A model generated the notes under the pieces. That model was not told the DNA's origin, searched no databases, and saw only the letters and a program-made list of their open reading frames with translations. The position numbers were made by a program, and so were the translations under genes. 64,000 nt of DNA from Daphnia carinata. Lineage: Eukaryota. Below are positions 1 through 20,002 of this stretch, in pieces. Every line of letters starts with the position of its first letter. Positions within the stretch are counted from its first letter, which is position 1. The stretch is taken from contig NC_081331.1 of the NCBI RefSeq assembly GCF_022539665.2, positions 7,254,001-7,318,000 of the forward strand. The letters run 5' to 3'.

Positions 1-2
1 AA

Positions 3-995
3 GATCATCCTCATGACTATACGTCTATTAAAGAAGCTTTACTTGATCACTTTCACGGGGACGAAAACGTTGACTTGTATATTAAGAAATTTAATAAGGC
101 TAAACGGAAACCGGGAGAAAAAATAATTGATTATGCTCATCGTCTTCAGGAAATCTTTAAAAAAGCGTATCCTGTAGGCCATATCGAGCGTTCCTTTTCA
201 ATTATTCTCATGCAGAAATTTATCGAAGGTTTGGATTCCAAGTTACAGGCGAAAGTTAAGTACAAAGAATTTGGCGACTTTAACGCACTGGTTGCAACGA
301 CACGCGTTTATGCTGTTCGCTTGGAAGCACTCGAATCTGACCGTGAAAAACATGAGTTTGTTAGGGCGATCGACGAGTCGAAAGGTGCAGAAAATACAGA
401 ATTGCATGAGATTAAGCAGATGTTAATCGATCAGAAAGCAATAGTCAATCAGGCCGTCGCGAATATACGTCAAGGGAACAAGATCGTAGACACTCCGAAA
501 TCGGAGAAGGATGAAATTAAAGACGCGCTGCGCGAGCTCAGTCAGGCGGTCAAACAACTCCAAATTAATAAGAAGGATAATGTTTCTTCTTCGGCGGGTG
601 CCCCATATAAAAAAAGGGTATCATTTCAAACAGGCAACGGCAATCGGGAAAGGAACTGGAAGACAAACCCTCCACCTTTCCCTAAGAGTAACACCCACCC
701 GTATCAAGGGGATAAGAACCAAAATAGGCCTACAAATTATATGCCATCTTCGCCAAGATCTGGTCATAATCCGAACAATGGGCCTATTGAGAATGTAATA
801 ACTTGCAACTATTGTGGGTTTCGGGGTCACACACAATCGGAGTGCCGTAAATTTCAACGGTATATGTTGGAACAAGCACAGCCCCCAATTTGCTATTCTT
901 GCCGTGAGATCGGCCATAAATCAAACAATTGTCCCAAGTATAGGGCCAGTAGGCCTAATATTCCGGGTCCCCCTCAGCATCAGGGAAACCAATAA
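3..995 (+). CDS. gag: Gag of element A (5'-truncated by window)
   Basis: Frame is open from base 3 (DHPHDYTSIKEALLDHF...) to TAA 993-995; two zinc knuckles, CNYCGFRGHTQSEC and CYSCREIGHKSNNC. Confidence 0.92.
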   Translation, partial: DHPHDYTSIKEALLDHFHGDENVDLYIKKFNKAKRKPGEKIIDYAHRLQEIFKKAYPVGHIERSFSIILMQKFIEGLDSKLQAKVKYKEFGDFNALVATTRVYAVRLEALESDREKHEFVRAIDESKGAENTELHEIKQMLIDQKAIVNQAVANIRQGNKIVDTPKSEKDEIKDALRELSQAVKQLQINKKDNVSSSAGAPYKKRVSFQTGNGNRERNWKTNPPPFPKSNTHPYQGDKNQNRPTNYMPSSPRSGHNPNNGPIENVITCNYCGFRGHTQSECRKFQRYMLEQAQPPICYSCREIGHKSNNCPKYRASRPNIPGPPQHQGNQ

Positions 996-1040
996 GTATC
1001 AACTGTAACTTCGGGTCAGTTGATAGGGTACCTCAGTTGA
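983..1040 (+). promoter_or_regulatory. -1 programmed ribosomal frameshift signal (gag-pol)
   Basis: Slippery G GGA AAC at 983-989 in the gag frame, 7-nt spacer, 9-bp stem TATCAACTG (997-1005)/CAGTTGATA (1017-1025). The -1 frame is open into pol (GKPISINCNFGSVDRVPQLKSR). Same signal in element B at 13194-13236. Confidence 0.85.
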
Positions 1041-3307
1041 AATCCCGACAAGTTGCGAAATTAACAACAATAATAAACGAATCGACCCCCAGAATTCCAT
1101 TACAAATTTTTCAGATCCCTTTACAGGCATTATTTGACACAGGCGCGTCTAGAAGCATAATTCACGAGAAGATATTTCAAAAGCTTCCCTCGAGAAATCA
1201 AGTAACCTGCAGTCAGCTTGATTTCGATTTATACGATGTGGGAGATAACAAGTTGCATACGCTGGGTAAAGTTACATTGCCCGTACGTTACGGAGAGTCC
1301 GTTTTACGGCAAGAGTTCATTGTTACAAATGGTGTTTCTGAAGACTGTATCCTTGGATGGGATGCAATCCAGAAACACGGGTTTCGGCTTGACGGAGAAG
1401 CCAAACGTATTTACTTAGCCAGGGATGAGCAGGGATCAGCCATCTCTAGGGCACCAGACATGGCAATTACGACGGTCAAAAAGACGACGCTAGTTCGTCA
1501 GACGGCGCTCGTAATCGCAGCGCAAATGACAGGTTCATTTCCGTATGTCCCCCCTAATAGCACATTTATTTTTACCCCAGCAGAGGATTTGCCGGCCGGT
1601 ATTTTTATTGAAGAATTTGTTGGAACTGTATCGGGAGATGGGAAATATCAAATTATGGTCGAAAACCATTCGTTAAGTCAAGTCATACTTCCTAGGAATA
1701 CAACCTTAGGCCAAATCGAAGTAATTCATAACGTAATTGGTAAGATTGCCTTATGTCAACCAGAGGAAAAGCCTACACAAAAACGGGAGCTAGTTTTAAT
1801 TTCGGAAGTCGACGCTGAATTTCAAGCTCCGCTCTCAAGTTTATTAAATGACTTTCATGACTTGTTCGCAACAAAAGACTCGGAATTAGGGAGCACTAAT
1901 CTCATTAAGCATACGATCGATACCCAAGGAAGAGGCCCTATCCGGCAACGACCCTATCGAGTTACGAACCACCAAAGAAAGATACTGGAGGATAAAGTGC
2001 AGGAAATGATGGACGCAAATGTAATACAATATTCTCATTCTCCATGGGCGTCACCTGTGGTTTTGGTTGAGAAGAAAGGCGGAGACGTGAGGTTTTGCGT
2101 TGATTATCGGAAATTAAATAGCATTACAAAAAAAGATTCATTCCCTATGCCAAGGATTGATGAAACGTTAGATAAATTATATGGGAAGAAATTTTTTACG
2201 ACCCTCGATTTGGCCTCCGGCTACTGGCAAATTCAAGTGAATGAACCAGACATTGAAAAAACCGCTTTTGTAGTAGAAAACAATCTTTACGAGTTTAAAA
2301 GGATGGCGTTTGGCTTGTGCAATGCACCCGCCACATTTCAAAGATTAATGAATTATGTACTGAAAGACGTTTTGGGACATAAAGCGTTAGTTTATTTGGA
2401 TGACGTCATTATATTTTCGGATACTTTTGATAATCATTTGAAAGATATTCGGGAAATTTTTACCTTATTGAAAACTGCCAATTTAAAATTAAAACTTAAG
2501 AAATGTCAATTCGTTAAACGTTCTGTAAATTATTTGGGCCACGTCATTTCGACTGAGGGAATTAAACCTGATCCTGGAAAAATCGACAAAATATTAAATT
2601 ACAAAACGCCTACTTCTGCCGATGAGGTGAGGTCATTTCTCGGGTTAGCAGGTTATTATAGGAGATTTATTCCCAACTTTGGTTCAATCGCAAAACCTCT
2701 GACTAGGTTAACTCACAAAGATCTTAGTAAAAGACCTTTTACCTGGGGAGACGAAGAACAAGTCGCGTTTGTAAAGTTGCGGACATCCCTGGTTACACCG
2801 CCGGTTCTCGCATATCCAAATTTTAATGAAAAATTTATTCTTTTCACTGACGCATGCGACTATGGTATTGGGGCCGTCTTATCTCAAATGCAAAACGGCC
2901 AAGAGCACCCGATAGCGTACTCCAGTAGGCAGTTAACTAAGGCGGAAATGAAGTATAGTACAACCGAAAAAGAAGCTCTGGCAGTCGTGGATGCCATTAA
3001 ACATTTCCGTCACTATCTCTTGGATAAACCCTTTGAGATAATTAGTGACCATCGTCCTTTGCAGTGGCTTAAAAATCAGAAGGATAATAATGGAAGGTTA
3101 GGGAGGTGGGCCATTTTATTGGCTGCAACAAATTATGAATTAAAATATAGGCCAGGCCGTGTTCACCAGAACGCGGACTGTTTGTCTAGATTAAAAATAG
3201 CTAGCATTCAAACTGGGAAGGATATTAAATTGATCTGCGAAAAAACAACAGGAGGACGACCTCTGTATAGCCATCAAGAATTATCTGGAAGAAGGAGAGC
3301 TGGATGA
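1037..3307 (+). CDS. pol: Pol of element A: aspartic protease, reverse transcriptase, RNase H
   Basis: ALFDTGAS (PR); FCVDYRKLN, LDLASGYWQ, YLDD (RT); TDACDYGIGAVL, EKEALA, SDHRPL (RNase H). The true frame continues into integrase across one extra A in the A6 run at 3240-3245. Confidence 0.95.
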   Translation: MKSRQVAKLTTIINESTPRIPLQIFQIPLQALFDTGASRSIIHEKIFQKLPSRNQVTCSQLDFDLYDVGDNKLHTLGKVTLPVRYGESVLRQEFIVTNGVSEDCILGWDAIQKHGFRLDGEAKRIYLARDEQGSAISRAPDMAITTVKKTTLVRQTALVIAAQMTGSFPYVPPNSTFIFTPAEDLPAGIFIEEFVGTVSGDGKYQIMVENHSLSQVILPRNTTLGQIEVIHNVIGKIALCQPEEKPTQKRELVLISEVDAEFQAPLSSLLNDFHDLFATKDSELGSTNLIKHTIDTQGRGPIRQRPYRVTNHQRKILEDKVQEMMDANVIQYSHSPWASPVVLVEKKGGDVRFCVDYRKLNSITKKDSFPMPRIDETLDKLYGKKFFTTLDLASGYWQIQVNEPDIEKTAFVVENNLYEFKRMAFGLCNAPATFQRLMNYVLKDVLGHKALVYLDDVIIFSDTFDNHLKDIREIFTLLKTANLKLKLKKCQFVKRSVNYLGHVISTEGIKPDPGKIDKILNYKTPTSADEVRSFLGLAGYYRRFIPNFGSIAKPLTRLTHKDLSKRPFTWGDEEQVAFVKLRTSLVTPPVLAYPNFNEKFILFTDACDYGIGAVLSQMQNGQEHPIAYSSRQLTKAEMKYSTTEKEALAVVDAIKHFRHYLLDKPFEIISDHRPLQWLKNQKDNNGRLGRWAILLAATNYELKYRPGRVHQNADCLSRLKIASIQTGKDIKLICEKTTGGRPLYSHQELSGRRRAG

Positions 3308-3317
3308 AATTTTTACA

Positions 3318-4961
3318 TTGTCCAAACCCGAGTGGGTAAAGGAAATTGAATATTTTGAGGTAATTGAAGGAATACTTTATAGACGGGAACTGCCATCTCA
3401 GAGTAATAAAAGGAACGACACCCATCATCAATTAGTTTTGCCATTATCCCTACGCCACCTAGTGCTTAAAGAATTACACGACGCACCGATGGGTGGACAT
3501 TTGGCATTTTATAAGACCTATATGAAAGTCAAAAATAATTATTATTGGCCCAACATGAGAGGCGATGTTAAAGAATATTGCCGGGCTTGTGAAGTTTGCA
3601 TAGCCAACACTGCTTCACCCTATCGAGCACTTTTGCATCCGCACGAAATTGCGAAGGCTCCTTTTGATGTAATTGGAATGGACTTTCTGGGTCCTATTAC
3701 ACCAGTTTCGCCCAATGGTAATAGTTACATTTTAGTTATTACAGATTATTTTAGCCGTTGGGTTGAGGCTGTTGCTTTAAAAGATCAAACTGCTCAGACA
3801 ACAGCAGAATGTGTATATAAAACTGTTATTGTTAGACATGGTATGCCTAAGGCAATTATTTCTGATCGTGGGACAAATTTCACGTCCAAGTTATTTCGCT
3901 ATTTTTGTAAAAAATTGAAGATCGATCAGAGGTTAACCACCGCTTATAACCCTGCTAGTAATGGGGAGACGGAAAGGTTCAATCGAACTTTAACGTCTAT
4001 GTTAAGAAAAGAATTAAAAGACGGCGAGCATGCCAATTGGGAAGAAATATTAGATGATGTTTTATTTGCGTATCGTAGCTCGGTCCACTCTTCGACATTG
4101 GACACTCCATATTATTTACTTCACGGTAGGGACCCAAACATTCCTATTAACGAATTTCTTAATGCATCTCCCAAAACATTCAAATCTTCTTCTGACTATG
4201 TTGGGAATCTGACAGAACGTTTGCGTTATAGTTTTCAAAGAGTTAGAGAGGAAAGCGAAAAAGCTAGAAAGCGCCAAAGGGAACAATATAACAAGCGCGC
4301 GAAAGAAAAACGATATGTGATAGGCGATCGGGTGTTATTGGATATTCGAGTAGTCAAGGAAGGAGATAGCAAGAAATTTACTTCGAAATATAAAGGGCCT
4401 TATAGAATAGTAAACGTTTATTCAAATAATACTGTAGACATTGCTGATAATTCATATATATGTCAGCGTACGCATGTAAATAGATTAAAACCCTTGTATG
4501 AAACAATGCTGTGGAAACATGAGCATTGTCCGCCACTTGAGACCCCTTTGGAATTCGAGAGCCGATTCCGGAAGTCTATTGCGACTCAAACTAATGTGCG
4601 TGAACACGAGCACGATGTCGAAACCGCAAGGCAACAAAACACCGAGTCCGAAGCCGTATCAGAAGTGGTATCAGACACTTATTCGGCAAATCATCAACTT
4701 GTGCGAGAAGACAATGTGATCGGCCCGTCTCATCTGTCGTTCGAAGGACGATTAACCTCGAGTGACAATTGCGATGTGACGAATGATGCTCAGCATCCAA
4801 TGCCACTTTCCGAAAATACTCCTATATACGCTGATAGTGATTCCGACCTTCAACAAGTAGAGCCCAAAGATGATGTGACAGCAGCGTTATTGCATCAAGA
4901 AGTCACCCGACGCCCTCAGCGAAATCGGAGAAAACCGATTCGTTACAGGGACGAAATGTAG
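3318..4961 (+). CDS. pol: Pol of element A: integrase portion
   Basis: HHCC (HDAPMGGH...CRACEVC), DDE core (GMDFLGP, SDRGTNF, NGETERFN), GPY motif KYKGPYRI, acidic tail; no chromodomain seen. Confidence 0.95.
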   Translation: MSKPEWVKEIEYFEVIEGILYRRELPSQSNKRNDTHHQLVLPLSLRHLVLKELHDAPMGGHLAFYKTYMKVKNNYYWPNMRGDVKEYCRACEVCIANTASPYRALLHPHEIAKAPFDVIGMDFLGPITPVSPNGNSYILVITDYFSRWVEAVALKDQTAQTTAECVYKTVIVRHGMPKAIISDRGTNFTSKLFRYFCKKLKIDQRLTTAYNPASNGETERFNRTLTSMLRKELKDGEHANWEEILDDVLFAYRSSVHSSTLDTPYYLLHGRDPNIPINEFLNASPKTFKSSSDYVGNLTERLRYSFQRVREESEKARKRQREQYNKRAKEKRYVIGDRVLLDIRVVKEGDSKKFTSKYKGPYRIVNVYSNNTVDIADNSYICQRTHVNRLKPLYETMLWKHEHCPPLETPLEFESRFRKSIATQTNVREHEHDVETARQQNTESEAVSEVVSDTYSANHQLVREDNVIGPSHLSFEGRLTSSDNCDVTNDAQHPMPLSENTPIYADSDSDLQQVEPKDDVTAALLHQEVTRRPQRNRRKPIRYRDEM

Positions 4962-4992
4962 CGTCATCATACATCCTAGTTCGATTGCCGAA

Positions 4993-5018
4993 CCAATACC
5001 GAGTGATTACTATATAAA
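4993..5018 (+). promoter_or_regulatory. putative internal Pol II promoter for accessory ORF
   Basis: CCAAT 4993-4997 and TATATAAA 5011-5018, 122 nt upstream of ATG 5133; equivalent TATATAA boxes precede both accessory ORFs in element B. Confidence 0.55.
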
Positions 5019-5132
5019 CCGTACGTTAAGTGAAGGAAGACACAACTTCTTGTACTCTCTGAGAACAACGACGACAACTGTTCTGTCTGTTTTGCCATTT
5101 CTTCACGTACAAAGAAGCGTTAAGAAGCCAAC

Positions 5133-5657
5133 ATGGACAACAAGTCTGAACCCATCTCTGAGCCCGTGACCAACGACTGGATACCTATGGTGTCCATCCC
5201 ACTCCCCGTCGCGGAGGCCCTCTTGGTAGACCTCACGACGTCGTCCGGAGACGCCTCGACGGCCGAACGTGACGCGCCGGATTCACCAGATCCCTCACCA
5301 ATCGACGACGAGGAGACCGCGGCCCGAAACCCGCCGGGGACGTCCGAGATGGAGGATGCCATCGATTTTAGCCGCGGCAGACCCCGCACCTCGGACTGGC
5401 ACCTCGATGCAGCCTGGGAGCAGAAGCAGCTGGAAATCAAGACAAATCAGTTGATCGCCCGTCTTCTCATCACCCTGTATGACAAGAAATGGAGTGACGC
5501 CGTCTTCACCCTAAAGGCGATCCTCGACCTGGACCCCGAAAGGCGCCATCCACCGCTCTATGGTTGGACATCGTGCCACTGGGACTTGCCCGAGAAGAGA
5601 CCCAGCACGGACGATCAACAGAAGGACCCCAACGCAAAGAAGCCGAGATACTTCTAA
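5133..5657 (+). CDS. accessory protein ORF-X(A), 174 aa: acidic N-terminus, TPR-like helix pair, C-terminal basic NLS-like motif
   Basis: ATG-started GC-rich ORF between pol and env; motif KKWSDAVFTLKAILDLDPERRHPPLYGW is conserved in ORF 18483-18923; ends AKKPRYF. Confidence 0.75.
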   Translation: MDNKSEPISEPVTNDWIPMVSIPLPVAEALLVDLTTSSGDASTAERDAPDSPDPSPIDDEETAARNPPGTSEMEDAIDFSRGRPRTSDWHLDAAWEQKQLEIKTNQLIARLLITLYDKKWSDAVFTLKAILDLDPERRHPPLYGWTSCHWDLPEKRPSTDDQQKDPNAKKPRYF

Positions 5658-5853
5658 GTCGTACGAGGACAACCGAAGAAATCGAGGAAGGAGGAAGCTT
5701 TTTCATTCGACCCTCTTTCAGTCCTCGTTATGTGTTATTCCTGATATTTCTCCTTCAATTTTTATGTTTACATTTACCATACTTTAATATTTACCTTTAT
5801 TTTGATTTCACATACCAATATTCGCTTTAACTCTCCTTGCTGCTATCCATCGA

Positions 5854-5883
5854 AATAAACTCATTGGTTGCTTAATCGTTTGT

Positions 5884-5946
<63 letters not shown>

Positions 5947-5954
5947 AAAAAAAA
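5854..5954 (+). terminator. polyadenylation signal plus genomic poly(A) tract after ORF-X(A)
   Basis: AATAAA 5854-5859, then 25 nt later an A tract 5885-5954 (one G at 5934). Confidence 0.55.
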
Positions 5955-7107
5955 TAGAAACAAAACATGATAATAAAACACTTAGTGGCTAACAAACAAC
6001 AATATCTATGAACGTATTATCCGTTACAACATGTATCTTGTTTTTCATGTCGTGCACTTTAACTTTCTCAATTTACGCCCCGTAGTCATTCCCTTGTTTG
6101 ACAGCCCATAGTATAAGTCCACATAGATTCTGATAAGTAGAGCCTTTTGAGTAGAGAAAAAAAATAATAAATAACAAAAAATCTTTTGCTTCAGAAAAAA
6201 TTTTTTAGCTTGATCATACCTTCATCAAGACCCGTAAATGAGTGTCACAACATATCAATTTAGTAGTCACAAATTAAGTAGCTCCCCTTTGTAGATTCCT
6301 ATTGCCAAACTAACACGGTAGATGTGGAGACATTACCATACTAACCAACAAAAACAACACCAAGAGAAAAAAAAAAAAAAAAAAAAGGATAAGAAAGAAA
6401 AGAAATACCTTTATATATTGTCAAAAACACATATATAACGCACAAATGATTTTCTGAACCGCAATGTCAAATTTCGTTTCCTATTTCCCTTCCTATCTCC
6501 TACACGTCACTTTCGTTATTTTTCAACGAATAGGTCCAAATCGTAGCCGTAACTTTTATACTCTCATTCCAATATGCCACGCAATACTGTTCACTTTCCC
6601 TTTCGTTCGTACACTACAGCTTGGCCATAGCCAACATCAAGAATACAGTATTAGCGCCGCCTCCCTTTTCCTGGAACTAATACTACTCTTGGACCTTGGA
6701 CCTTCGCGGCAAAATCCTTTCCCGTCGCAAACTTCTAAACATTTCTTTTCTCGTCTTCCCTGATCAACTGTCCTGTATTTTCTTACTTTCCCTTTCCGAT
6801 AATTATGGTCATCTTTTTCTCTTTCCAACGATACTAAATAATATAAAAAACAAGTTGTCCTTCCCCCTTAAAACAAAACTTTATTCTAGTGCCCTTTTTC
6901 CTTTCTCTTTTCCGTAGCCTACTAATAAAGCCGACGGGAAAAGCCGTTGACCTTGCGACAGCCGTAGGCTATTTTTCACTTCCTCACTTCTTCTTGTATG
7001 TTTTTGTTTTGTTTTGTGTTACTTAGTTAAGAAGCCCACACGATGACATTTTTCTTTTGTTAAGTCACATATTTTCTTTTGTCTGTATGTACCGGCCGGA
7101 TATAGAA

Positions 7108-8796
7108 ATGTCCCCCTCTGCATTCCTGCTGCTATTATGCGTGTACGGATTACATTCCCAGGCCTTCGAGACTACCGTATGCAATTGCGCGGAACCAGTG
7201 AAGGTGGGAATTCTTCAATTCTCCGATGAGAATTGTCAACCGACATCCACCGATATTAAAGCCACCAAGGTGAAATACGCCGTGTATAGTGAAGAACGCG
7301 CCGCGACTAAATTCCCGGGTTACATCTGTGCCCGTTGGAAAAATATCCGACACATCACAATGACCTTCTTCGGGCAACTATTGGTTGTGCCGGATAAAAT
7401 CCCAATTGATACTACCCCCGCCGACTGCAACGAAATGATTGACAACAAGAGGTGCAATGATAACCGGATGACTTTTGTCGACGGAAAATTTGTGTTCGAC
7501 AATGAACCAGATATCTCTGGATACTGGTTACAAACAATTGATTCGTCAATCATAAACTGCGTTCTCGAGAAAGTCGAACTTTTCCAGCAAAAGGAGGATG
7601 CAGACTTCTCAACACCCATCGGAATTGCTTCTGCTACGTCCGGCAATTTGTCGCACAATCACTTAACACTGATTTGGGACAAAACCTACACACAGAAGAC
7701 CAAAGTAACTACCAGACTCGTCGAAGACGGCATCGGTATGCTGACCCGATTGCCAGGAGAAAAACCACTCCTTAGACTCCAAGATGACAAAAACCAATTG
7801 GACTTCCACCTGACACCAGTACTGCGCTGCGTTTCAGTACAACAAAATTGCTCCAATAGAACTTCTTCATATGAAATCGTCGGCCAATCCAAACTCTTCG
7901 TCACGACGGCAGCCATAATGGAAAAAGCAACCCCAGTGGAGACCCGAGCGCCACTCGGCGCCGAAAACTTAAATATTCCGGCCAATATCCAGTACATCCG
8001 TGATCAACTCACCGACCACGAGAATGAATTGGCACGACAGGTTCAACTACTTCAATGTGAAGCTCGTAAAGCCAAACATGAAAGGGCCGTCACAACCGCC
8101 CAATATAATGGATGGCTAGCGGCCTCACAATTAAACTTACCCCGGTGCACGAAATTACAAGCATTCGGGAAGACGGTCGTATTAATTCAATGTCAGGCCT
8201 TAAATGTCACATTTGAGACTGTATTGACTTCGTGCGGACCGCAACCAAAATTCCAAAATTATACGATTAACCTCGATGGCTGGGAACTCGTAAAATATTC
8301 TCCTTGTTATTGGACAAATGGATTTGTCAATTTCAATAACAAACCCTATGCCTTCCGTAATAATACGTGGGAACAACTCGAAGCCACAATTGTATTGCCT
8401 GAGCAAACGCTGGCACACTCTTTCCGCTACGAGAACGTCGAATTTTTCGACTACGAACACCAAAGTAACCCGGCATACACCGACAATATGCTTAACCACA
8501 TGAACATCATGGCCGACATAGCAGCCGTGATCAACGAACATCCATCATCCGAATTTACGTCGCACGGTAAACCCAGCGCCACAAATATTTTCATAACGGC
8601 CTCCAGTGTCGGAGCTTACACATCTTGGTGGGAAACAATAAAAAATTACTTCTTCATCGGCATCATGTGCATCCTCGTATTACTCTTCCTACGCATCTGC
8701 TACTGTTGCGGTCTCTTCAAGATCTTCTGGGTTATATGCCGTCGCCCTCATAAACGTTCAACATCCTCCGGATCCATCCCCATGCATCAAGTCTGA
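7108..8796 (+). CDS. env: Env of element A: class III (herpesvirus gB / chuvirus G-like) fusion glycoprotein
   Basis: Signal peptide MSPSAFLLLLCVYGLHSQA from ATG 7108 (ORF open from 7057); Cys-rich ectodomain with NxS/T sites; fusion-loop-like GYICARW...TFFG and EPDISGYW; gB-like NIQYIRDQL...LQCEARK, AFGKTVVLIQC and CGPQP; C-terminal TM and short tail. Confidence 0.85.
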   Translation: MSPSAFLLLLCVYGLHSQAFETTVCNCAEPVKVGILQFSDENCQPTSTDIKATKVKYAVYSEERAATKFPGYICARWKNIRHITMTFFGQLLVVPDKIPIDTTPADCNEMIDNKRCNDNRMTFVDGKFVFDNEPDISGYWLQTIDSSIINCVLEKVELFQQKEDADFSTPIGIASATSGNLSHNHLTLIWDKTYTQKTKVTTRLVEDGIGMLTRLPGEKPLLRLQDDKNQLDFHLTPVLRCVSVQQNCSNRTSSYEIVGQSKLFVTTAAIMEKATPVETRAPLGAENLNIPANIQYIRDQLTDHENELARQVQLLQCEARKAKHERAVTTAQYNGWLAASQLNLPRCTKLQAFGKTVVLIQCQALNVTFETVLTSCGPQPKFQNYTINLDGWELVKYSPCYWTNGFVNFNNKPYAFRNNTWEQLEATIVLPEQTLAHSFRYENVEFFDYEHQSNPAYTDNMLNHMNIMADIAAVINEHPSSEFTSHGKPSATNIFITASSVGAYTSWWETIKNYFFIGIMCILVLLFLRICYCCGLFKIFWVICRRPHKRSTSSGSIPMHQV

Positions 8797-8829
8797 TTAC
8801 GAGACGTAATCTCACGCCGCCGGGAGTGA

Positions 8830-9522
8830 TGTAAAGAAGCAAATAAATGTTTTTATTCGATATGCCTTCCCGTTTATTCTTTGTATATGACTCATGTGTT
8901 ACGCCATATAAACTGCGCAGTAGTGTATTATATTACATCGGCACCTTGCCGCTTAGCAACATTTGTGATTGGCTGCTTAGGCGTTGATCTGTATTGCACC
9001 ATCAACTTTATATATCAAATTTCATTAGTTGCGACATGTAATTGCGCAGTTGTTAATTGCTGTGCAATATGCGAGGTTCCGTGGTGAACCAAGATCTGAG
9101 TAAGTTTAGTTGTCGATGAGCCTCTGACTCTTACAGGCGGAGTTCAAGTTCAGCTAGTGCTTCCCCATTGATAAATTGGTGCAAGTGAATTGAGCTGTGT
9201 CACGTGCTTGTCTGAGTGTTCGGTTCACCCATATTGTTTACCCACGTGCCGACGAACTCCTGTTAACGCTGCCTTCTCTTATATCCTCGCCCGTGCTCCA
9301 CTCAAGCCACCGCGGTAAGCTTATACTACAGTATCATATTACACTCCGACTTCTCTTTCTTTAGTCTGACTCCTTTTGTACTATCCCAACTGACTTCTGT
9401 ACCGCTTAGCCCTACTTGGATAAATATAAATCATCGTGTGGGTAAATCGCCTCCGAGTTCGATTCATTCCAATTTGTCTTAATTCCGTAAAGTACATCTT
9501 CTCACAGAGAAGATGCTTTACA
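8830..9522 (+). repeat. 3' LTR of element A (693 bp)
   Basis: 7-bp terminal inverted repeat TGTAAAG/CTTTACA, preceded by short purine-rich GGGAGTGA just after the env stop; closely similar copy at 11762-12542. Confidence 0.92.
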
Positions 9523-9922
9523 GTAGTATTTTGTAGTAAACTGTACTCTTTAGCGTAAAGATTTATTGACTAAATAGATTTAATTGCATCTATTCGTACT
9601 TAATTAATTCCTGGACAGTGCGTTTGTCGTCGTGTAATACTTGTTCGATCCACTTGTTTGCGTGCTGCCTTCGTGAATGAGGTTATCACGTTCGCTTCCG
9701 TGTCAGTTTCTTTTCCGCTATCCGTGTTATCACGGGAAGATTTGGCTACAATTGTCTGTCTCTCTCTTTAGATTCCCTACTGTATCGTTATTTCTTTCTA
9801 TGTTCTTGCCTCTGGTAGTACACTTGATTTAAAATAATACATTCATCATTGTGGATAATACTATTATTACTTTTGTCTTAATTACGTAAAGTCAGTCTTC
9901 CCACACGGGAAGATGTTTTACA
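9523..9922 (+). repeat. 3' part of 5' LTR of element B (interrupted by element A)
   Basis: Ends GAAGATGTTTTACA immediately before a PBS; last ~160 bp match ~21400-21581. Confidence 0.8.
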
Positions 9923-9925
9923 TTA

Positions 9926-9936
9926 TGGTGGCAACG
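9926..9936 (+). promoter_or_regulatory. primer binding site of element B (tRNA-Leu-like)
   Basis: TGGTGGCAACG 3 nt after the LTR end; resembles the complement of the tRNA-Leu 3' end (TGGTGGCAGCG). Confidence 0.6.
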
Positions 9937-9956
9937 TTTTTCAGAACTCTACCACA

Positions 9957-12900
9957 ATGATGGACGATGTTATTACAGGCGGGCATAAACTTTCTCATAC
10001 ACCTGTGAACTCTCCGCTAATTCCTGTAACACCCGTACTGCAAGTCAATGACGAAACGATCGCTAAGTTAATTAGTTTTGAAAAATTGTCAGCTCCTACC
10101 ACGACCATCCCGCATACATTTCAAGGCTGTAAGACGTCAAGAAAAACAGAAGCCATTAAGCAATCTGCCTCTCCCGTTTTAACTCCAAAAGTACAGACAG
10201 ATACCAACCAGATGAGAAAACTGAAGTCTAACACCGCGTACGAGGCCGTAGCCCCATCAGTTAAAACCAACACTAGGAAAATTTGGTCCCGTAGCAAAGC
10301 TTCCGTTGCACCTACTCAGCCCGCACCGTCTGTTTATGCAAAGTTAGCTTCTCGTTTTTCTCCCATAAAATCACCTGTAAAAACCGCGTCGAAAACTAGC
10401 TTTCTCTCAAGTACGATTATCGGTAATTTTCAAAAGAAGGGTCCACTAGATGGAAAATCACCCCAACTCGAGTCTCCATCGCCTATACCACGAGATCCAG
10501 ACCAATCAATCGAGAATATTCCCAGCACCGACGAATCAGTTAACGTCCCTGCTACTAACGCTTAAGTACCACAAGGAGAGGGAGTTGGATTTCCGATCAA
10601 CCGATTCCATAATTTGGGGACAACTAATATCGTTGATGCAAACAATCCAGCGGCGGTATCAATACCAAACCAAAGTGCCTCTGCCAAAGACACTCCTGAA
10701 ATCCTTGCATGCAATTTTGGAAGCGAGAGCCAGTGGATCATCCAGGACGACGACGCAGGTTGCGGAGCCCCAAGTGACCGTGCTGATAGCAATATTCACA
10801 ACATATGCGAGGGAGTTTTCGATTTTCCTACTAGGACAGACTTTCAGCATCCTCGAATTGCTGACATTCACGCCGGCGAACGACAAGAAACTCTTCAACT
10901 TTGCCCCCAGGGAAGGCTTACTCAACCACCGCGATGACGGGACATATTGCCTTCTCACACTAGAGATATCGGAGTTCTCAAACTACCTATAGGATACCCT
11001 GTGGGAGTCCCAGCGGACGTTTCTCACGGACAACCTGCACCTGGTCTCTTACCTAAGAAAAGCAGCAAGCAGCTGCAGTCCCTAATCAGTTTGGAGGCAC
11101 TATTGCCGGAACTGAGATCTCTTCAGACCAAATTCCAACGAATTTAGACAGTTGCTGTGATACATCCAGAGGACCCAGGAAGAACAGCAAACCACCTCTA
11201 CTCCGCATGTAGCGCCGCTGTCGGAACGCATCCCGAAGAGAAGCCGAGCACGTAAAAAAAACCGGCCTTCCAGCCAGTCACGCACTCAACACCCTACTCA
11301 AGCCCAGCACTCCAGCCAGCAGGCAGATCTGATAGTGCAACTCAGGCGATTACGAACAGCATTTCAGGACACCCTCAGTTTCACGGCGAAAGACGTTGAA
11401 TCCTCCCATATTCGATCCCAACATGGCCAAATCTTGTTCCCCTTCACGGGCAACCAAAGTCAACGATTTAAATGATTTCCAGACAAACCAACACTTTTTC
11501 GCGCCTACAATTGCTTCCATCCTTTTCGGGAAGTCCAATTTCTCGCTTCGACTCTTGGCTAGAAACTTTTGAAAGCATAGTTGATGGGGCAGCATGGTCG
11601 GAAGAAAAGATTGTTCAGATGCTGCGAGCTAAAATAACAGATAAGGCTTTTTCAGTACTTCAAAACATTGTCAGACAGCATCCAAGTACGTATAAGGAAT
11701 TTCGCGACTTGAACGAGCTTGTTGCATCAACGCGTGCTTATGCCGTTCGTTTGGAAGCTTTTGTAAAGAAGCAAATAAATGTTTTTATTCGATATGCCTT
11801 CCCGTTTATTCTTTATGTATGACTCATGTGTTACGCCATATAAACTGCGCAGTAGTGTATTATACTACATCGGCACCTTGCCGCTTAGCAACATTTGTGA
11901 TTGGCTGCTTAGGCGTTGATCTGTATTGCACCATCAACTTAATGTATCAAATTTCATTAGTTGCGACATGTAATTGCGCAGTTGTTAATTGCTGTGCAAT
12001 ATGCGAGGTTTCGTGGTGAACCAAGATCTGAGTAAGTTTAGTCGTCGATGAGCCTCTGACTCTTACAGGTGGAGTTCAAGTTCAGCTAGTGCTCCCCCAT
12101 TGATAAATCTGTGCAAGTGAATTGAGCTGTTTCACGTGCTTGCCTGAGTGTTCAGTTCACCCATATTGTTTACCCACGTGCCGACGAACTCCTGTTAACG
12201 CCGTCTTCTCTTATCCTATCCTCGCCCGTGCTATTACTGTAACGCAAATAAATATTTTTATTCAAAATACCTTTCCGTTTTAACAAGCCACCGCGGTAAT
12301 CATATTACATCGCTTATACTACAGTATCATATTACACATGTAATTGCGCGAATTGTTGTGCAATTCTCTTTCTTTAGTCTGACTCCTTTTGTCTTATCCC
12401 AAACTGACTTCTGTACCGTTACTTCTTAGCCCTACTTGGATAAATATAAATCATCGTGTGGGTAAATCGCCTCCGAGTTCGATTCATTTCAATTTGTCTT
12501 AATTCCGTAAAGTACATCTTCTCACAGAGAAGATGCTTTACACTTTAGAGAAAGATCAGGAAAAACATGAATTTGTTAGGGCGATCGACGGGTGTTGTGA
12601 CACAAAAAATTTTGAATTAAAAGACTTCAAACAAATGTTAATTGACCGGAAGGAAATAGTAAATAATGCCGTTGCTAATATTAGTCAAGGGAATTAGAAT
12701 GCGGGAGATCCCGAAAGACAACAGGGAACATTAGGGATGTTCTTCATGAACTCACGCAAGCAGTAAAAAAACTCTAAAGGGACAAGAAAGATCATTCTTC
12801 TTCTCCAACAGGCAACCCTTATAAGAAACAAGTTTCGTTCCAAACCAATAGCGGCAATCAAGACAGAAATTGGAGACCTCCTCATCGTCCCCATTCTAAC

Positions 12901-13206
12901 ACAAAGTCTTACCAACATGCGGGATTCTCCAATAGACCTACTCAGTCCCCACCCTCGTTTTCGAGACCTATTAATGATTCAAGAAATAGGCTTACTCAAA
13001 CTGGAATAAGTTGCAATTTCTACGGTTTTCGTGGGCATACACAATCGGATTGCCGTAACTTCCAACGGCATAATTTGGAACAAGCACAGCCGTCAATGTG
13101 TTATTCTTGTCGTGAAATCGGACACAAATCGAATAACTGTCCTAAGTTCAGGAGCTCCGATAGGCCGAATATTCCAGGTCCCCCTCAGCGTCAGGGAAAC
13201 CAATAG
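9957..13206 (+). pseudogene. gag: gag of element B, disrupted
   Basis: ATG 9957 after the PBS; capsid-like LPSFSG...FDSWLETFE at ~11510; matches A (AYAVRLEA/EKHEFVRAID) on both sides of the solo LTR; stops, frameshifts and an internal deletion at ~11690; zinc knuckles ~13010-13140. Confidence 0.8.
11762..12542 (+). repeat. solo LTR of element A family inserted in gag of B
   Basis: TGTAAAG...CTTTACA flanked by 4-bp TSD CTTT (11758-11761 and 12543-12546); removing it restores gag LEA-LEKDQEKHEF. Confidence 0.93.
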
Positions 13207-16200
13207 ATATCAACTGTAACTTCTGGTCAGTTGATAGGGAGCCTCAGTTAAAATCCCAAAGAGTCGCAAAATTAACAACTATAACAAATGAATCGACCAC
13301 TAGAATTCCATTAAAAATTTTTCAGATACCGTTACAAGCATTATTTGATACAGGCGCGTCTAAAAGTATAATTCACGAGAGAGTATTTCAGAAGTTACCC
13401 CCGAGAGGTCAAGCGATCTGCAGTCAGCTTGATTTCGATTTGTATGATGTAGGGGAGAAAAAGTTACAAACGCTGGGAAGAGTTACATTGCCCGTACGAT
13501 ACGGAGAGTCAGTTCTAAGACAAGAGTTTATTATTACGAATGGTGTTTCTGAAGACTGTATCCTTGGATGGGATGCAATCCAGAAACACGGTTTTCGGCT
13601 TGACGGAGAAGCCAGGAGCGTTTATTTAGCAAGGGATGAGCAGGGATCAGCCATCTCTAGGGTACCAGACATGGCAGTTACGACGGTCAAAAAGATGACG
13701 TTATTTCGTCAGACTTCGCTAGTAGTTGCAACGCAAATGAAAGGTTCATTTCCGTATGTCCCCCCTAATACCACATTTATGTTTACCCCAGCAGAGGATT
13801 TGCCGAACGGTATTTTTATTGAGGAATTCATTGGAAACGTAGCTAAAGATGGGAAATATCAAACTATGGTCGAGAATCATGCGTTAAATCAAGTCATACT
13901 TCCTAGGAACACTACATTAGGCGTAATCGAGATTATTCATAACGTAATTGGGAAAATTGTTTTAAGTAAATTAGAGGAAAAGCCTACTATTACAAGTGAG
14001 CCCGTTTTAATTTCAGAAGTCGACGCTGAATTTCAAGCTCCGCTCTCAAAACTATTAAATGACTTTCACGACTTGTTCGCAGCAAAAGATTCAGAATTAG
14101 GGAACACTAATCTCATTAAACATACAATTGATACACAAGGAAGAGGCCCTATTCGACAACGCCCTTATCCAGTTACAAATAATCAAAGAAAAATATTGGA
14201 AGATAAAGTACAGGAAATGTTGGATGCTAATGTGATCCAATATTCACATTCGCCATGGGCTACACCTGTGGTTTTAGTGGAAAAGAAGGGTGGAGAAGTA
14301 AGATTTTGCGTTGACTATAGGAAATTAAATAGTATTACGAAAAAGGATTCATTCCCTATGCCTAGGATAGATGAAACATTGGACAAATTGTATGGGAAGA
14401 AATTTTTCACCACTCTTGATTTAGCTTCAGGTTATTGGCAAATTCAAGTTGATGAGCCGGCTATTGAAAAAACAGCATTTGTAGTAGAAAATAACCTTTA
14501 CGAATTTTAGCGTATGGCATTTGGATTGTGCAATGCGCCTGCGACATTTCAAAGACTAATGAATTATGTACTGAAAGACGTTTTGGGAAGTAAGGCGTTA
14601 GTTTACTTGGATGACGTAATCGTCTTTTCGGACACTTTTGACGATCACTTGAAGGATATTCGCGAAATCTTTGAGTTATTGAAAAATGCCAATCTAAAAT
14701 TAAAACTTAAAAAATGCCAGTTCATTAAAAGTTCAGTTAATTATTTAGGCCATGTCATCTCGACTGACGGTATCAAACCTGATCCGAGTAAAATTGAGAA
14801 AATAGTTAATTATAAAACGCCCGCTTCAGTAAATGAAGTCAAATCATTTCTGGGTCTAGCTGGGTATTACAGAAGATTTATTCAAAATTTTGGATCAATC
14901 GCTAAACCATTGCCTAGATTAACCCATAAAGATCTTAGAAGGAAACCTTTTAATTGGGGAAACGAAGAAAATATTGCTTCCGAAACCTTGCGTACATCTC
15001 TAGTGACTCCACCAGTACTTGCTTACCCCAATTTCAACGAGAAATTTTTCTTTTTCACCGATGCATGCGATTATGGCATTGGAGCGGTACTGTCCCAAAT
15101 TCAAAATGGTCACGAGCACCCAATTGCGTATTCCAGTAGACAGCTAACGAAGGCAGAAGCTAAATACAGTACGACTGAAAAAAGGCACTTGCGGTTATCG
15201 ATGCGATTAAGCATTTTCGACATTACCTTTTAGACCAACCTTTTGAGATCATTAGTGATCATCGTCCACTTCAATGGCTTAAAAATCAGAAAGATAACAA
15301 TGGGAGATTAGGAAGATGGGCTATACTGTTGGCCGCAACAAATTATGAATTAAAATACAGACCGGGACGTATTCACCAAAACGCTGATTGCTTGTCACGC
15401 TCAAAAATAGCTAGTATCTAAACCGAACGTAATATTAAGTTAATTTGTGAAAAACAATTAGAAGACGACCTTTGCATAGCCATTCGGAATTATCTAGATA
15501 ACGGTGAACTTGAAGAAGTTTTTCTCCAATCTAAGCCAGATTGGGTAAAAGTAAAGATCTAAAGATCTAAGTATCTAAAAGTAAAGAATCATTATTATTG
15601 GCCTACCATGCGAAAAGACATCAAAGAATACTGTCAGGCTTGTGAGGTATGAATTGCCAACACTTCGTCAAATTACAGAGCGTTATTGCATCCTCATGAA
15701 ATTGCAAAGACCCCTTTTCAAGTTATAGGCATGGCTTTTCTAGGCCCTATCACACCAGTTTCGCCCAATGGTAACAGTTACATTTTAGTTATCACAGATT
15801 ATTTTAGCCGATGGGTGGAAGCTGTTGCTTTAAAGGATCAGACTGCGCAGACAACAGCAGAATGTGTATACAAAACAATTATAGTTAGACACGGTATGCC
15901 TAAAACTATTCTTTCAGATCGCGGAACCAATTTCACGTCGAAATTATTTCGTTACTTTTGTAAAAAATTAAAAATTGATCAACGGCTAACAACCGCTTAT
16001 AATCCAGCTAGTAACGGAGAAACAGAAAGGTTTAATAGAACATTAACAACAATGTTGAGGAAAGCATTGAAAGACGGAGAGCATGCAAATTGGGAAGATT
16101 TGCTGGATGATGTTTTGTTTGCTTATCGTAGTTCTGTCCATTCTTCTACACTGGACACCCCTTATTACTTATTACACGGTAGAGACCCCAATTCACCCAT

Positions 16201-16978
16201 CAATGAATTTCTTGACGCGTCCCCAAAAACATTTATATCCGCATCCGATTACGTAGGTAACTTAGCCGAACGCTTGCGCTACAGTTTCCAACGCGTCCGT
16301 GGGGAGAGCGAAAAAGCCAGAAAACGTCAAAGGGAGCAATACAATAAAAGAGCGAATGTAAAACAATATTTGGTAGGAGATAGAGTCTTATTAGATATTA
16401 GAGTTGTAAAAGAGGGCGATAGTAGGAAATTTACTTCCAAATATAAAGGCCCTTATAGAATTGTAAAAGTATATTCCAATAATACAGTCGACATAGCCGA
16501 CAATTCATACATATGTACACGTACGCACGTTTACCGTTTAAAACCCCTATATGAAACGATGTTATGGAAGGATGAACATTGTCCCCCTATCGAGTCGCCT
16601 TCAATATTCGAGAATCAATTCCGTAAATCGATCTCGACCCAAACAATGGGAAGTGAGGAACACCTGGAACAAGAAACAAGCGAAGTAAGAAATGGGGAAC
16701 CGGAAAAAGAGTATCCAGATAGCGTGGATGTGGAAAATATGGAATCCGAAACGGTGGAAACTGAAAACATGGTGTCAGACACCGTGGAGTTAGAAACGAC
16801 GAGGCTGGGAATTGACAAGCACCTCAATCTCCCACCAATTGCCGAAGATGATTCCAATGATAATTATGAAACGCAGCAGATAGCATCTGATGTCGTTCCG
16901 TCAGCAACAACGGCACCACAAAACGCAACCGGACGCCCGCAAAGGAATAGACAATTGCCAATGCGTTTCAGAGATTAA
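13194..16978 (+). pseudogene. pol: pol of element B, disrupted
   Basis: Collinear with pol A; TAG at 14508-14510, frameshift ~15180, stop ~15419, deletion at ~15550 before the integrase core. Confidence 0.9.
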
Positions 16979-17158
16979 ATCCGATAACTCATCCGCATGC
17001 AATTCTGTGATCGCGTTTCAGAGAAAAAACAAACAAACAAAAACTCGAAAGTATATAACGGCGAGTAGATCGAAAAGAGCCACATCTTTCCGACAACTCG
17101 TTATAGTCACAACTCTAACAAGATTTATCTCCACACCGCAAAGCATCATCAAAGTAAG

Positions 17159-17404
17159 ATGGAAAACCAAACTAGCGTTCAACACGAACAAGACACCGTC
17201 GAAGGGACTGGTGACGAGTTGCAAGCTAACGAAGTGGTGACAACAACGGAGCCCACTGCTGACTTGTCCTGGGAGCCAGTGGCAGAAAACACGGCCGAGG
17301 GGGTCAACCCAACACCTCATTCCCCAGACCAGACTAGCCCAGACTCTTGGGATCAGGCCCATCGCAACAAAAGGCCAAGGCGCGATTGGTACGACCAATT
17401 GTAA
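17159..17404 (+). CDS. accessory ORF B1, 81 aa, acidic with NLS-like NKRPRR
   Basis: TATATAA 17052-17058 upstream, AATAAA 17534-17539 downstream; resembles the N-half of ORF-X(A) (PHSPDQTSP vs PDSPDPSP; RPRRDW vs RPRTSDW). Confidence 0.55.
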   Translation: MENQTSVQHEQDTVEGTGDELQANEVVTTTEPTADLSWEPVAENTAEGVNPTPHSPDQTSPDSWDQAHRNKRPRRDWYDQL

Positions 17405-17758
17405 GGTGGAAGAAAAAAAAAAAAAAAAGCGGAAGAGAACTTCTGTTTTTCCCTAATACCGTAGTCAATATGTTTGTTCCATAGGTTAGAACGCGCTTGT
17501 GCTTTTCCCTTCTTATGTTAAGCAAATCAATCGAATAAACATAGTAGAATTATGCAACAACAATTTTTTGGGTTTTCAACAAGGAAAACAACCAAACAAA
17601 TGAGCAATGGCTGTGTTAAAAACCGCCATTTGACGAAAAAAAAAATATAAACATCGGAAAATAAATACCGAAGGCAGAATGTGCGCCATTGCAAAAGAAA
17701 TAAGAAATCAATTGGAGCGTTAAACACTCATAAGAAAAAAAAAAATAAAAGAAAAGAT

Positions 17759-17829
17759 GTTGGCGCGTCTAGAACTCAAGACTCCCGAGTCGTGGGCGGA
17801 CGCTATACCGACTGAGCCACTTCGCCAAC
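17759..17829 (-). ncRNA. degenerate tRNA-like / Pol III unit or SINE head, antisense within element B
   Basis: Minus strand GTTGGCGAAGTGGCTCAGTCGGTATAGCG...GAGTTCTAGACGCGCCAAC: A box, imperfect B box, 7-bp closing stem, then ATCTTTTCTTTT. Confidence 0.45.
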
Positions 17830-18482
17830 GGTCCAGGCCACACAAAACCCGATAGGTTTGAAGAAAAATAATAATTAGGATAAAACACGAAAAACAATTA
17901 TTTAGTGACATCAGATCACCTTTATTACCTTGAAGTTAATCAAACTTCGTGAATGGTAAACCGAAAAACTTACCGTAGGATTTTTAAGAATTGAGGTGTT
18001 GACGAGTGTAGAGCGCGGTGCTCCCGAGACGTATGCGCCATACAACCAATACCAATCCAAAAATAACACCGACAAATAGTTCAATCTCCATATAGCAAGA
18101 CAGCTTTAAAACCTTGTAACAATTAACCTCACCTGTTTTGTTGTCTTCCTTCACTTTTTCTAATTTCTCTATTACCTTTAACACACACTAAAATAATCCA
18201 AAACCAACCAAGTGACGGAAAGGAGCTAGCCACGAATCGAACAGCGCACACCTATCGCTGTTTTTCCCACGACGAAAACGCGAAACTAGAAACATAAGAA
18301 TCAATTCAAATGATACCCGAGAGTGATGAAGATGTTGAAAGCCAAACTGAGAAACGGGTGTGATCAGCCAGTGAGGATTTCGTGACTATATAAGTCAGCA
18401 CACATCTCCTCAACCCAACACTCGCGATTTCTTCAGAGCCAGAAGACGTTAGTGAAACACCCCAAAAATCAAAGACCGCACA

Positions 18483-18923
18483 ATGGCCGAAAACAATAGC
18501 CGTGCAGGAGGACCCGCCGCAAAACGGGCGTGCCGTCAGCATCAGCAACAGGTCCGCGTTGCTGAGGAACCAGTTAATCCCGACGCCGCGATCGCACCTC
18601 CGGGAGAAGCCGCAACACCAGTCGCAGCCGCAGCCCCGGGCCCAGCTGCAGCCGAACGAGAACAAAACCCGGTGGAGGCCTTCAGAGAACGAGTCCAGGA
18701 GCTCCAGGAAGAGCTGGAGGCGGTCACCCATGCCCTTACCCAAGGATTGGTGCGCTGCATCGAGCTGAAGAAGTGGAGGAAAGCGACGGAACGCTTCAAG
18801 GAGATACTGGATTTGGATCCAGCAAATCGGCACCCGCCGTTCTTCGACTGGTCGGCCGAAAGCTGGGCGGATGACGACCTGTGCCTCCATTGCAACGAAC
18901 ATCGCCATCCACCAGCCTACTAA
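18483..18923 (+). CDS. accessory ORF B2, 146 aa, homolog of ORF-X(A) C-half (TPR-like)
   Basis: TATATAA 18387-18393 upstream, AATAAA 19035-19040 downstream; KKWRKATERFKEILDLDPANRHPPFFDW; N-terminal PAAKRA NLS-like motif. Confidence 0.7.
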   Translation: MAENNSRAGGPAAKRACRQHQQQVRVAEEPVNPDAAIAPPGEAATPVAAAAPGPAAAEREQNPVEAFRERVQELQEELEAVTHALTQGLVRCIELKKWRKATERFKEILDLDPANRHPPFFDWSAESWADDDLCLHCNEHRHPPAY

Positions 18924-19790: not shown

Positions 19791-19860
19791 GTCTAACTGG
19801 GGATTCGAACCTCAAACTTTGACATCACAGCTAAGAGCGCTACCATAGAGCTATTAGCTA
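19791..19860 (-). ncRNA. degenerate tRNA-like / Pol III unit or SINE head, antisense within element B
   Basis: Minus strand TAGCTCTATGGTAGCGC (A box, D arm) ... CTGTGAT loop ... GGTTCGAATCC (canonical B box) at tRNA spacing. Confidence 0.5.
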
Positions 19861-20002
19861 GTATATTACACCTGGTGTAGAAGAGTAGGTAATATACCAA
19901 TTGTTTCCGTAAATGCATTTTCTTTGTGTGTCGTAGTATACTTTTTGCTTTATGCGCTATCCCTACCGCCTTGTTGAAACTTAGAAAAAATCGAACACTG
20001 CG

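Follow-up and report, generated by a model that had tools for sequence, protein, structure and literature searches.

An errantivirus of the Ty3/Gypsy type in Daphnia carinata with a predicted class III fusion protein and a putative accessory gene between pol and env

In the survey of errantiviruses by Chary and Hayashi (eLife 2026, PMC13524379), envelope genes of the HSV/gB type are as common as those of the F type, and at least 15 HSV/gB-type errantiviruses are from Branchiopoda, including Daphnia and Ceriodaphnia (13 in 30 of the 33 Branchiopoda table rows and 2 in the alignment file). The main text of that survey, in the part available, does not mention accessory genes, promoters, splicing, or frameshifting, and according to section 9 of a 2012 review (PMC3383448), accessory genes had not been shown for errantiviruses. 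These and the other papers cited below were available in part, and statements about them refer to those parts. Here, we describe a retroelement, element A, at the start of a 64,000-nucleotide (nt) stretch of the Daphnia carinata genome (assembly GCF_022539665.2, contig NC_081331.1, positions 7,254,001 to 7,318,000, forward strand; the window), together with the adjoining sister element B and a comparison set of 40 loci with related elements, which carry L numbers. Element A is probably a cladoceran errantivirus of the Ty3/Gypsy group that has moved recently but is now broken, and that encodes a predicted fusion protein of class III (gB type); its lineage keeps an extra gene, ORF-X, between pol and env that likely has a TATA promoter of its own. 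The lineage belongs with the HSV/gB-type errantivirus group. A first-pass annotation of the window had considered the lineage possibly undescribed and its gB-type env unusual; such envelopes are already catalogued in Daphnia and Ceriodaphnia, and what looks new is the pol-env spacer with ORF-X. The gene order, the domains, the mobility of the long terminal repeat (LTR), and the occurrence of ORF-X homologs at the same place in other elements are direct observations, which are presented first.

The gag and pol features of element A are as follows.
Positions 3 to 995, plus strand: 3′ part of gag, an open reading frame (ORF) open from base 3 and cut at the window edge, with two CCHC zinc knuckles (zf-CCHC, E 1.3e-05).
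Positions 983 to 989, plus strand: slippery heptamer GGGAAAC in the gag register, identical in B, L014, L016, and L017.
Positions 997 to 1049, plus strand: predicted pseudoknot of the H type, separated from the slip site by 7 nt (stem at 997 to 1025; loop at 1010 to 1015 pairing with 1044 to 1049).
Positions 959 to 3307, plus strand: first part of pol, with protease, reverse transcriptase (RT), and RNase H, in the −1 frame relative to gag.
Positions 3234 to 4961, plus strand: second part of pol, with integrase; a frameshift break within 3234 to 3307 lies between it and the first part.

The order of the pol domains, protease-RT-RNase H-integrase, is that of Ty3/Gypsy elements (Metaviridae), and the top PDB matches of the RT are Ty3 RT (E 1.2e-84), the next being at E 1.7e-52. 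Together with the env model described below, these results bear out the first-pass view of a crustacean Gypsy element with a class III fusogen. The same annotation had read the locus as a near-intact element of gag, −1 frameshift, pol, and env with one lesion. This layout was found, with pol in the −1 frame and a single visible break in pol, which falls on a short run of A residues in the stretch between RNase H and integrase; "near-intact" cannot be judged, since the 5′ LTR, the primer site, and most of gag lie beyond the window edge. The break may be either a true mutation or an assembly error. Element A falls outside the "intact" class of Chary and Hayashi, in which RT and integrase are in continuous ORFs, and this concerns the copy and not the lineage. 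The pol bridge, for which their "ancient" group is defined by an RNase H plus a "mini" domain, is ∼105 amino acids (aa) long in element A, a judgment by length only.

Complete relatives have gag proteins of 755 to 1,125 aa. In all eight distinct elements having both ORFs, pol lies in the −1 frame relative to gag, and five of the eight carry GGGAAAC in register. In an alignment of nine elements, 86% of the cells of the two-stem pseudoknot are paired, both sides have changed in 8 of the 16 pairs, and the covariation is 0.339; shuffles give 0.189, with none of the 500 reaching the observed value, and all six slid controls stay at or below 0.212. The pseudoknot model was read from the same aligned sequences, and the elements are kin, so the covariation is support and not proof. 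Gag-Pol would be made through −1 frameshifting at GGGAAAC ahead of the pseudoknot.

The LTRs and the sister element are arranged as follows.
Positions 8830 to 9522, plus strand: 3′ LTR of element A, 693 bp, with ends TGTAAAG...CTTTACA.
Positions 11762 to 12542, plus strand: solo LTR of the element A family inside gag of B, with CTTT flanking both sides.
Positions 9523 to 21581, plus strand: sister element B, with an LTR remnant, a primer-site-like sequence TGGTGGCAACG at 9926, and broken gag, pol, and env.
Positions 17159 to 17404, plus strand: B cassette 1, an 81-aa ORF without detected homology to ORF-X; TATA-like site at 17052, AATAAA at 17534.
Positions 18483 to 18923, plus strand: B cassette 2, a 146-aa homolog of ORF-X; TATA-like site at 18387, AATAAA at 19035.

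The TG...CA ends of the 3′ LTR and the 4-bp target-site duplication at the solo LTR are Ty3/Gypsy traits. The solo LTR is identical to the 3′ LTR of element A at 670 of 693 aligned bases (96.7%), and the gag of B resumes on either side of it. The 97% identity and the 4-bp target duplication of the solo LTR show that the element A family was mobile recently, and because this LTR splits the gag of B, the family moved after the arrival of B. Among the features by which Chary and Hayashi describe HSV/gB-type errantiviruses are several genomic copies more than 98% identical; what the window offers for comparison is the solo LTR at 96.7%. Remnants of LTR ends, 80% alike, lie on both sides of B at 9523 to 9928 and 21406 to 21587. 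Element A probably inserted into the 5′ LTR of B, because its 3′ LTR abuts the remnant at 9523 to 9928. As for the idea that B repeats the layout of element A, the gene order is indeed repeated, and the second spacer ORF is homologous to ORF-X, but B has two cassettes instead of one and is heavily broken.

The envelope gene of element A lies between the spacer and the 3′ LTR.
Positions 7108 to 8796, plus strand: env, 562 aa, with a signal-peptide-like start, a predicted class III fusogen ectodomain, six N-glycosylation sequons, and a transmembrane helix near residues 510 to 540.

No R-X-X-R furin motif was found in this protein. Pfam gave no match for the protein itself, and among 50 aligned homologs, 13 match the rhabdovirus fusion-domain family and 11 match the Monjiviricetes fusion family. 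The predicted model (mean predicted local distance difference test score [pLDDT] of 79, predicted template modeling score of 0.49) matches herpesvirus gB in the PDB (E 1.8e-17, template modeling score of ∼0.36) and xinmo-, chu-, and rhabdo-like glycoproteins in BFVD (E 1e-21 to 1e-18). As judged from the model, the assignment to the class III fusogens is secure at the level of the class, without herpes gB being set above the glycoproteins of negative-strand RNA viruses as nearest kin. Coronavirus spike transmembrane tails, found among PDB sequence matches of the env profile at E 0.002 or worse, were rejected as relatives and judged compositional. The env family has 1,157 representatives at E ≤0.001; the homologs assigned to a species belong to D. 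magna, D. pulex, and D. sinensis, with identities of up to 65%. A sister env family (the protein cluster of P0001), 65% identical to the env of element A, has 23 members; 14 of the 15 members listed are from D. magna, on several scaffolds, and the family is therefore multicopy there. A search of viral contigs gave no relatives of env or ORF-X. The env tree is a quick version with long-branch warnings and supports no claim made here.

The spacer between pol and env carries the additional ORF.
Positions 5133 to 5657, plus strand: ORF-X, 174 aa, GC content of 0.59, with an acidic, low-confidence N-terminal half and a conserved helical hairpin at residues 88 to 133.

ORF-X is 43% identical over 54 aa (E 6e-13) to the second spacer ORF of B. 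The sole similarity between the spacers of A (2.1 kb) and B (3.1 kb) is in the frame of ORF-X, with no blastn match, and because the similarity is confined to this reading frame, ORF-X appears to be coding. A homolog lies between pol and env in L001, a metagenomic element. A D. pulex scaffold of 229,610 nt carries a member of the ORF-X family (EFX66265.1) whose accession directly precedes that of an env protein on the same scaffold (EFX66266.1), and the D. pulex gene model EFX72137.1 joins an integrase to an ORF-X homolog behind it. On this sequence evidence, ORF-X is a real gene family. It is narrowly distributed, the ORF-X profile run over 5,594 peptides (40 loci plus the window) having found three places only. 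It is hardly credible that ORF-X arose as a random GC-rich frame or broke away from the end of pol. The first half of ORF-X is of low complexity with pLDDT below 50, and the window's own ORF-X has no Pfam match, no homolog in a single-sequence search (0 of 149 candidates), and no usable match in the ESM Atlas, where the homolog from B has none either, all of which would fit a chance frame; the homologs in B and D. pulex would not, and a pol tail is contradicted by the same profile, which has no match under E 0.4 in any pol tail among those peptides. Nothing was found with the full profile among PDB sequences. The ratio of nonsynonymous to synonymous proportions (pN/pS) for ORF-X of A versus B was not relied on as evidence of selection, being saturated and biased by the protein-guided alignment.

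To place the spacer in its lineage, an integrase tree was built for 15 elements, leaving out L019 (a permuted copy of L017); L030, whose spacer is cut, is unlabeled. A branch with support of 100/100 groups A, B, L001, L004, and L014. All five have a long post-pol region with an extra ORF (spacers of 1.9 to 3.1 kb) and a TATA box in the long spacer, and the proposal that the extra cassette is a family trait thus held for every member of the clade. Eight of the nine labeled elements of the sister clade have spacers of ∼20 to 220 nt, including the Dpul_3-like and Dpul_4-like loci; L021 is the exception, with a long spacer and an extra ORF, and because of it, the slot trait must have changed at least twice. 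The closest relative of L021, L017, has no cassette. ORFs without detected similarity to ORF-X occupy the same slot in six further cases, namely, B cassette 1 and the following.
L004, positions 1830 to 2399: slot ORF.
L014, positions 12020 to 12925: slot ORF.
L021, positions 4600 to 4911: slot ORF.
L008, positions 119 to 409 and 388 to 636: slot ORFs.
L009, positions 2 to 400, and L011, positions 1 to 450: slot ORF.

None of nine other spacer ORFs matched Pfam (0 of 9). The ORF of L009 and L011 has a ratio of nonsynonymous to synonymous substitution rates (dN/dS) of 0.26. Slot contents would thus turn over, with unrelated ORFs held by related elements. The slot ORFs of L004 and L014 close with a hydrophobic stretch. 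A relationship of the second L008 ORF to the L009/L011 ORF was rejected, 76 of 1,000 shuffles having scored as high. The long spacers of L021 (5674 to 6353) and L022 (1 to 857) contain internal repeats of 250 to 270 nt that are ∼70 to 75% alike. In addition, an antisense ORF of 69 to 105 aa is conserved on the minus strand of the pre-env spacer in three related elements.
L013, positions 565 to 882, minus strand: antisense pre-env ORF.
L014, positions 1043 to 1300, minus strand: antisense pre-env ORF.
L018, positions 469 to 678, minus strand: antisense pre-env ORF.
Between L014 and L013, this ORF shows a pN of 0.17 and a pS of 0.73; it has no Pfam match and may represent a second kind of accessory gene.

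Several motifs in the spacer of element A bear on how ORF-X and env may be expressed.
Positions 5011 to 5018, plus strand: TATA-box-like site TATATAAA, 50 nt past the pol stop and 122 nt ahead of the ORF-X ATG; a motif only.
Positions 5854 to 5859, plus strand: AATAAA, candidate poly(A) signal of the ORF-X cassette; a motif only, frequent in the A-rich spacer.
Positions 5885 to 5954, plus strand: A tract of 70 nt (49 A, G, 20 A), 25 nt past the AATAAA, containing the longest of the 37 A/T runs of at least 15 nt in the window.
Positions 7068 to 7105, plus strand: candidate splice acceptor, a pyrimidine-rich stretch plus TAG, directly ahead of the env ATG.

In seven cassettes, a TATA-like box lies 63 to 122 nt upstream of the ATG, with AATAAA past the stop. 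A TATA motif within −20 to +150 of the pol stop is present in five of six long-spacer elements versus one of seven short-spacer elements, the background being 178 of 908 windows; the box of L004 begins at +146. The first ATG past the box opens at least 80 codons in five of six elements, compared with 28 of 162 spacer ATGs. From these motifs, ORF-X is likely transcribed from its own internal TATA promoter. The cassette would then form, inside an env intron, a small separate transcription unit (TATA, 5′ leader, ORF, and AATAAA), and ORF-X would be expressed apart from the genomic RNA. In insect errantiviruses, env is expressed from a spliced RNA. The env ATG is preceded by AG within 8 nt in all 11 elements checked, and five of the six sister-clade envs shown have no Met ahead of the signal peptide; expression of env from a spliced RNA is likely here as well.

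A number of points weigh against this reading of gene, slot, and promoter. ORF-X is found in just three of six long-spacer elements and is therefore dispensable across the clade. The pol-env link of L014 and the short spacer of L023 presuppose circularly permuted contigs. The elements are kin, and the TATA windows and thresholds were chosen post hoc; TATA and AATAAA are frequent in AT-rich spacers, with four of each in that of element A, and in L014 the first ATG past the box opens only four codons. L017 has a box past pol with no extra ORF, and the box may therefore serve env. Moreover, if the internal poly(A) site on the sense strand were neither weak nor suppressed, it would truncate the genomic RNA.

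Some of these points would suit a different arrangement, in which ORF-X is a real accessory gene read from LTR-driven RNA by alternative splicing or early polyadenylation, and the post-pol box is incidental or drives env. Precedents exist for both parts, since env of the Oikopleura element Tor4b starts from an internal promoter in the pol-env space (PMC4402516), and sORF1 of the Drosophila MDG1 group comes from a short, LTR-driven transcript that terminates at a poly(A) site within the element (PMC11952523), as described in those sources; the box of L017 agrees with this as well. We nevertheless regard it as rather unlikely, given that each of the two ORFs in B has its own box at a similar distance (107 and 96 nt), that the range of box-ATG distances given above holds over cassettes with several unrelated ORFs, and that the acceptor-like sites and the frequently missing Met favor splicing of env.

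The A tract points to yet another origin, namely, that the cassette is captured cargo, a polyadenylated RNA copy gained by template switching and without a role for the element. The AATAAA followed 25 nt on by the window's longest run resembles an mRNA end, the slot contents are unrelated among relatives, and ORF capture between pol and env is known (PMC6431247, in the part available). Set against this, long A runs are frequent in the window, an mRNA copy would not carry its TATA box along, the ORF-X core is kept as protein while similarity of A and B at the DNA level is undetectable, open frames persist in the D. pulex elements, and the unrelated slot ORF of L009 and L011 has the low dN/dS noted above. 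In addition, no host-gene or virus source of ORF-X was found in the homolog, ESM Atlas, and viral-contig searches. Cargo without a role is accordingly judged quite improbable, and capture and later function are not exclusive of each other. The reading of ORF-X as an accessory gene with a likely promoter of its own is retained below.

Structure prediction gives some indication of what ORF-X might do. AlphaFold predicts a confident hairpin (helices at residues 88 to 116 and 120 to 133) in an otherwise low-confidence chain. Residues 82 to 152 are predicted to pair with themselves, with a score of 0.40, compared with 0.03 for the best of three controls, a pLDDT of at least 70, and at least 65% of contacts agreeing between runs; at the mark used for a dimer, 7 of 16 solved animal homodimers pass, and none of 30 eukaryotic single chains does. 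In a structural search with the core, the top row is the C-terminal domain of yeast Vta1 (Z 6.8, root mean square deviation of 1.8, 53 residues aligned). Pfam Vta1_C, matched at E 0.12 by four of eight ORF-X family members, leads to the VSL domain as well. The VSL domain of Vta1 is a hairpin that forms a four-helix dimer and binds Vps4 (PMC5413351, in the part available). The identification with Vta1 is weakened in several ways. The structural match ties with unrelated hairpins, rows 1 to 20 being within one unit of Z; the Pfam match is weak and does not include the window's own ORF-X; the core resembles a tetratricopeptide repeat (TPR) helix too; and the dimer score may reflect likeness to solved hairpin dimers. 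A TPR identity of the core was itself rejected, with 4 to 6 bits per repeat and a pass only through summed repeats.

The safer statement is that ORF-X may be a dimeric, nonenzymatic adaptor. As an adaptor or decoy, it would present a flexible acidic arm on a hairpin forming a four-helix dimer, bind a host protein, and serve the element. The leading guess for its target is the Vps4/ESCRT budding machinery, bound via a Vta1-VSL-like surface, and it is a guess that we consider doubtful; Vps4 binding, if true, would suit an enveloped element. A counter-defense role is as open as targeting of Vps4/ESCRT. The boldest version would be an errantivirus lineage with an exchangeable, self-promoted cargo slot inside the env intron holding several unrelated accessory families, in which ORF-X mimics the dimeric Vta1 VSL domain and directs host Vps4/ESCRT to bud enveloped particles, that is, an invertebrate "complex" retrovirus arisen independently of Retroviridae. 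Taken as a whole, this scenario has little probability.

Apart from elements A and B, the window contains the following features.
Positions 21584 to 22068: remnant of a broken RT after B, 46 to 52% identical to pol of element A, from a third and more distant Gypsy element.
Positions 23529 to 24164: fragment of an RNA virus methyltransferase of the alphavirus supergroup (Pfam Vmethyltransf, E 1.4e-24), an endogenous nonretroviral element adjoining the retroelement cluster.
Positions 27572 to 27697 and 32919 to 33043: 126-nt inverted repeat with arms that are 87% alike and lie 5.2 kb from each other; these may be the termini of a DNA transposon.
Positions 41389 to 42033, minus strand: exon of a host Rrp15-like gene (Pfam Rrp15p, E 1.1e-06).

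The closest described relatives of element A are the Branchiopoda HSV/gB-type errantiviruses of PMC13524379, which are likewise cladoceran Ty3/Gypsy elements with gag, pol, and env and a gB-like ectodomain between a signal peptide and a transmembrane helix. Motifs of the published Dpul_3, Dpul_4, Cdub_5, and Cdub_6 recur in the compared loci or proteins, and these proteins are 29 to 33% identical to the env of element A (E 6e-34 to 2e-98); eight motifs for the other 11 published Branchiopoda rows gave only one match, protein P0127, with ∼26% identity. As far as these motif checks reach, element A appears to be a relative of the published set and none of the elements listed. Dpul_3 and Cdub_6 are listed with a primer site of the tRNA-Leu type, which also occurs in seven compared loci and, with a mismatch, in B. 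The differences lie in the integrase of element A, which is in a clade apart from the published-type elements; in the pol-env spacer, which is 2.1 kb long with a cassette, compared with 219 and ∼70 nt in the Dpul_4-like and Dpul_3-like loci, respectively; and in the env, which lacks three cysteines common to the nearest published-type envs and has one cysteine added, the C2c bridge pattern of Branchiopoda being the criterion of comparison. The prefilter of PMC13524379 accepted pol-env gaps of up to 1,000 nt, and the seeming absence of the long-spacer clade from the published set may be because of this filter, which suggests that surveys using a short gap filter overlook whole clades. No description of an extra pol-env ORF in Daphnia elements was found in the literature searched, which included a survey of D. 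pulex LTR elements (PMC2996953) and did not extend to subscription papers and repeat databases. A gB-type env is not news by itself, and the value of the locus lies in the cassette slot and ORF-X. A lineage of this kind in a laboratory model genus makes it testable whether invertebrate enveloped retroelements run internal transcription units, and the conserved cassette slot makes it testable which host proteins errantivirus accessory products bind.

Each ingredient has a precedent in the available parts of the literature, namely, internal promoters, small accessory ORFs that use a poly(A) site within the element, and the capture of ORFs into the pol-env interval. The Oikopleura elements Tor3b and Tor4b (PMC4402516) are Gypsy elements with an env gene, for which an internal promoter within or behind pol has been demonstrated, similar to the layout of element A. 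In Tor elements, this promoter drives env, and no separate ORF is described, whereas in element A the predicted box precedes a non-env ORF and env looks spliced. The sORF1 and sORF2 of the Drosophila MDG1 group (PMC11952523) are small Gypsy accessory ORFs, one of them from a short transcript with an internal poly(A) end and with a predicted helix-turn-helix; compared by description only, they differ from ORF-X in being upstream of gag, LTR driven, and in elements without env. In bdelloid and plant LTR retrotransposons (PMC5408684, PMC7264820, and PMC6431247), additional ORFs that follow pol, some of them located between pol and env, have been swapped among lineages, but these ORFs are enzymes (DEDDy and GDSL), env-like, or antisense, and ORF-X matches none of them in Pfam.

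The comparison with foamy viruses and other complex retroviruses, which the first-pass annotation had drawn, reduces to a resemblance in layout. The RT of element A matches Ty3 (E 1e-84) far more closely than it matches the Pr125Pol chains (E 1e-39), which we take to be of foamy virus origin. Foamy viruses have an internal promoter for tas/bet, and the likeness to element A is in the idea of the layout only, an accessory gene with an internal promoter, here predicted from motifs. Foamy viruses are Retroviridae, whereas element A has a Ty3-like RT and a predicted class III env, and taxonomically it does not count as a complex retrovirus.

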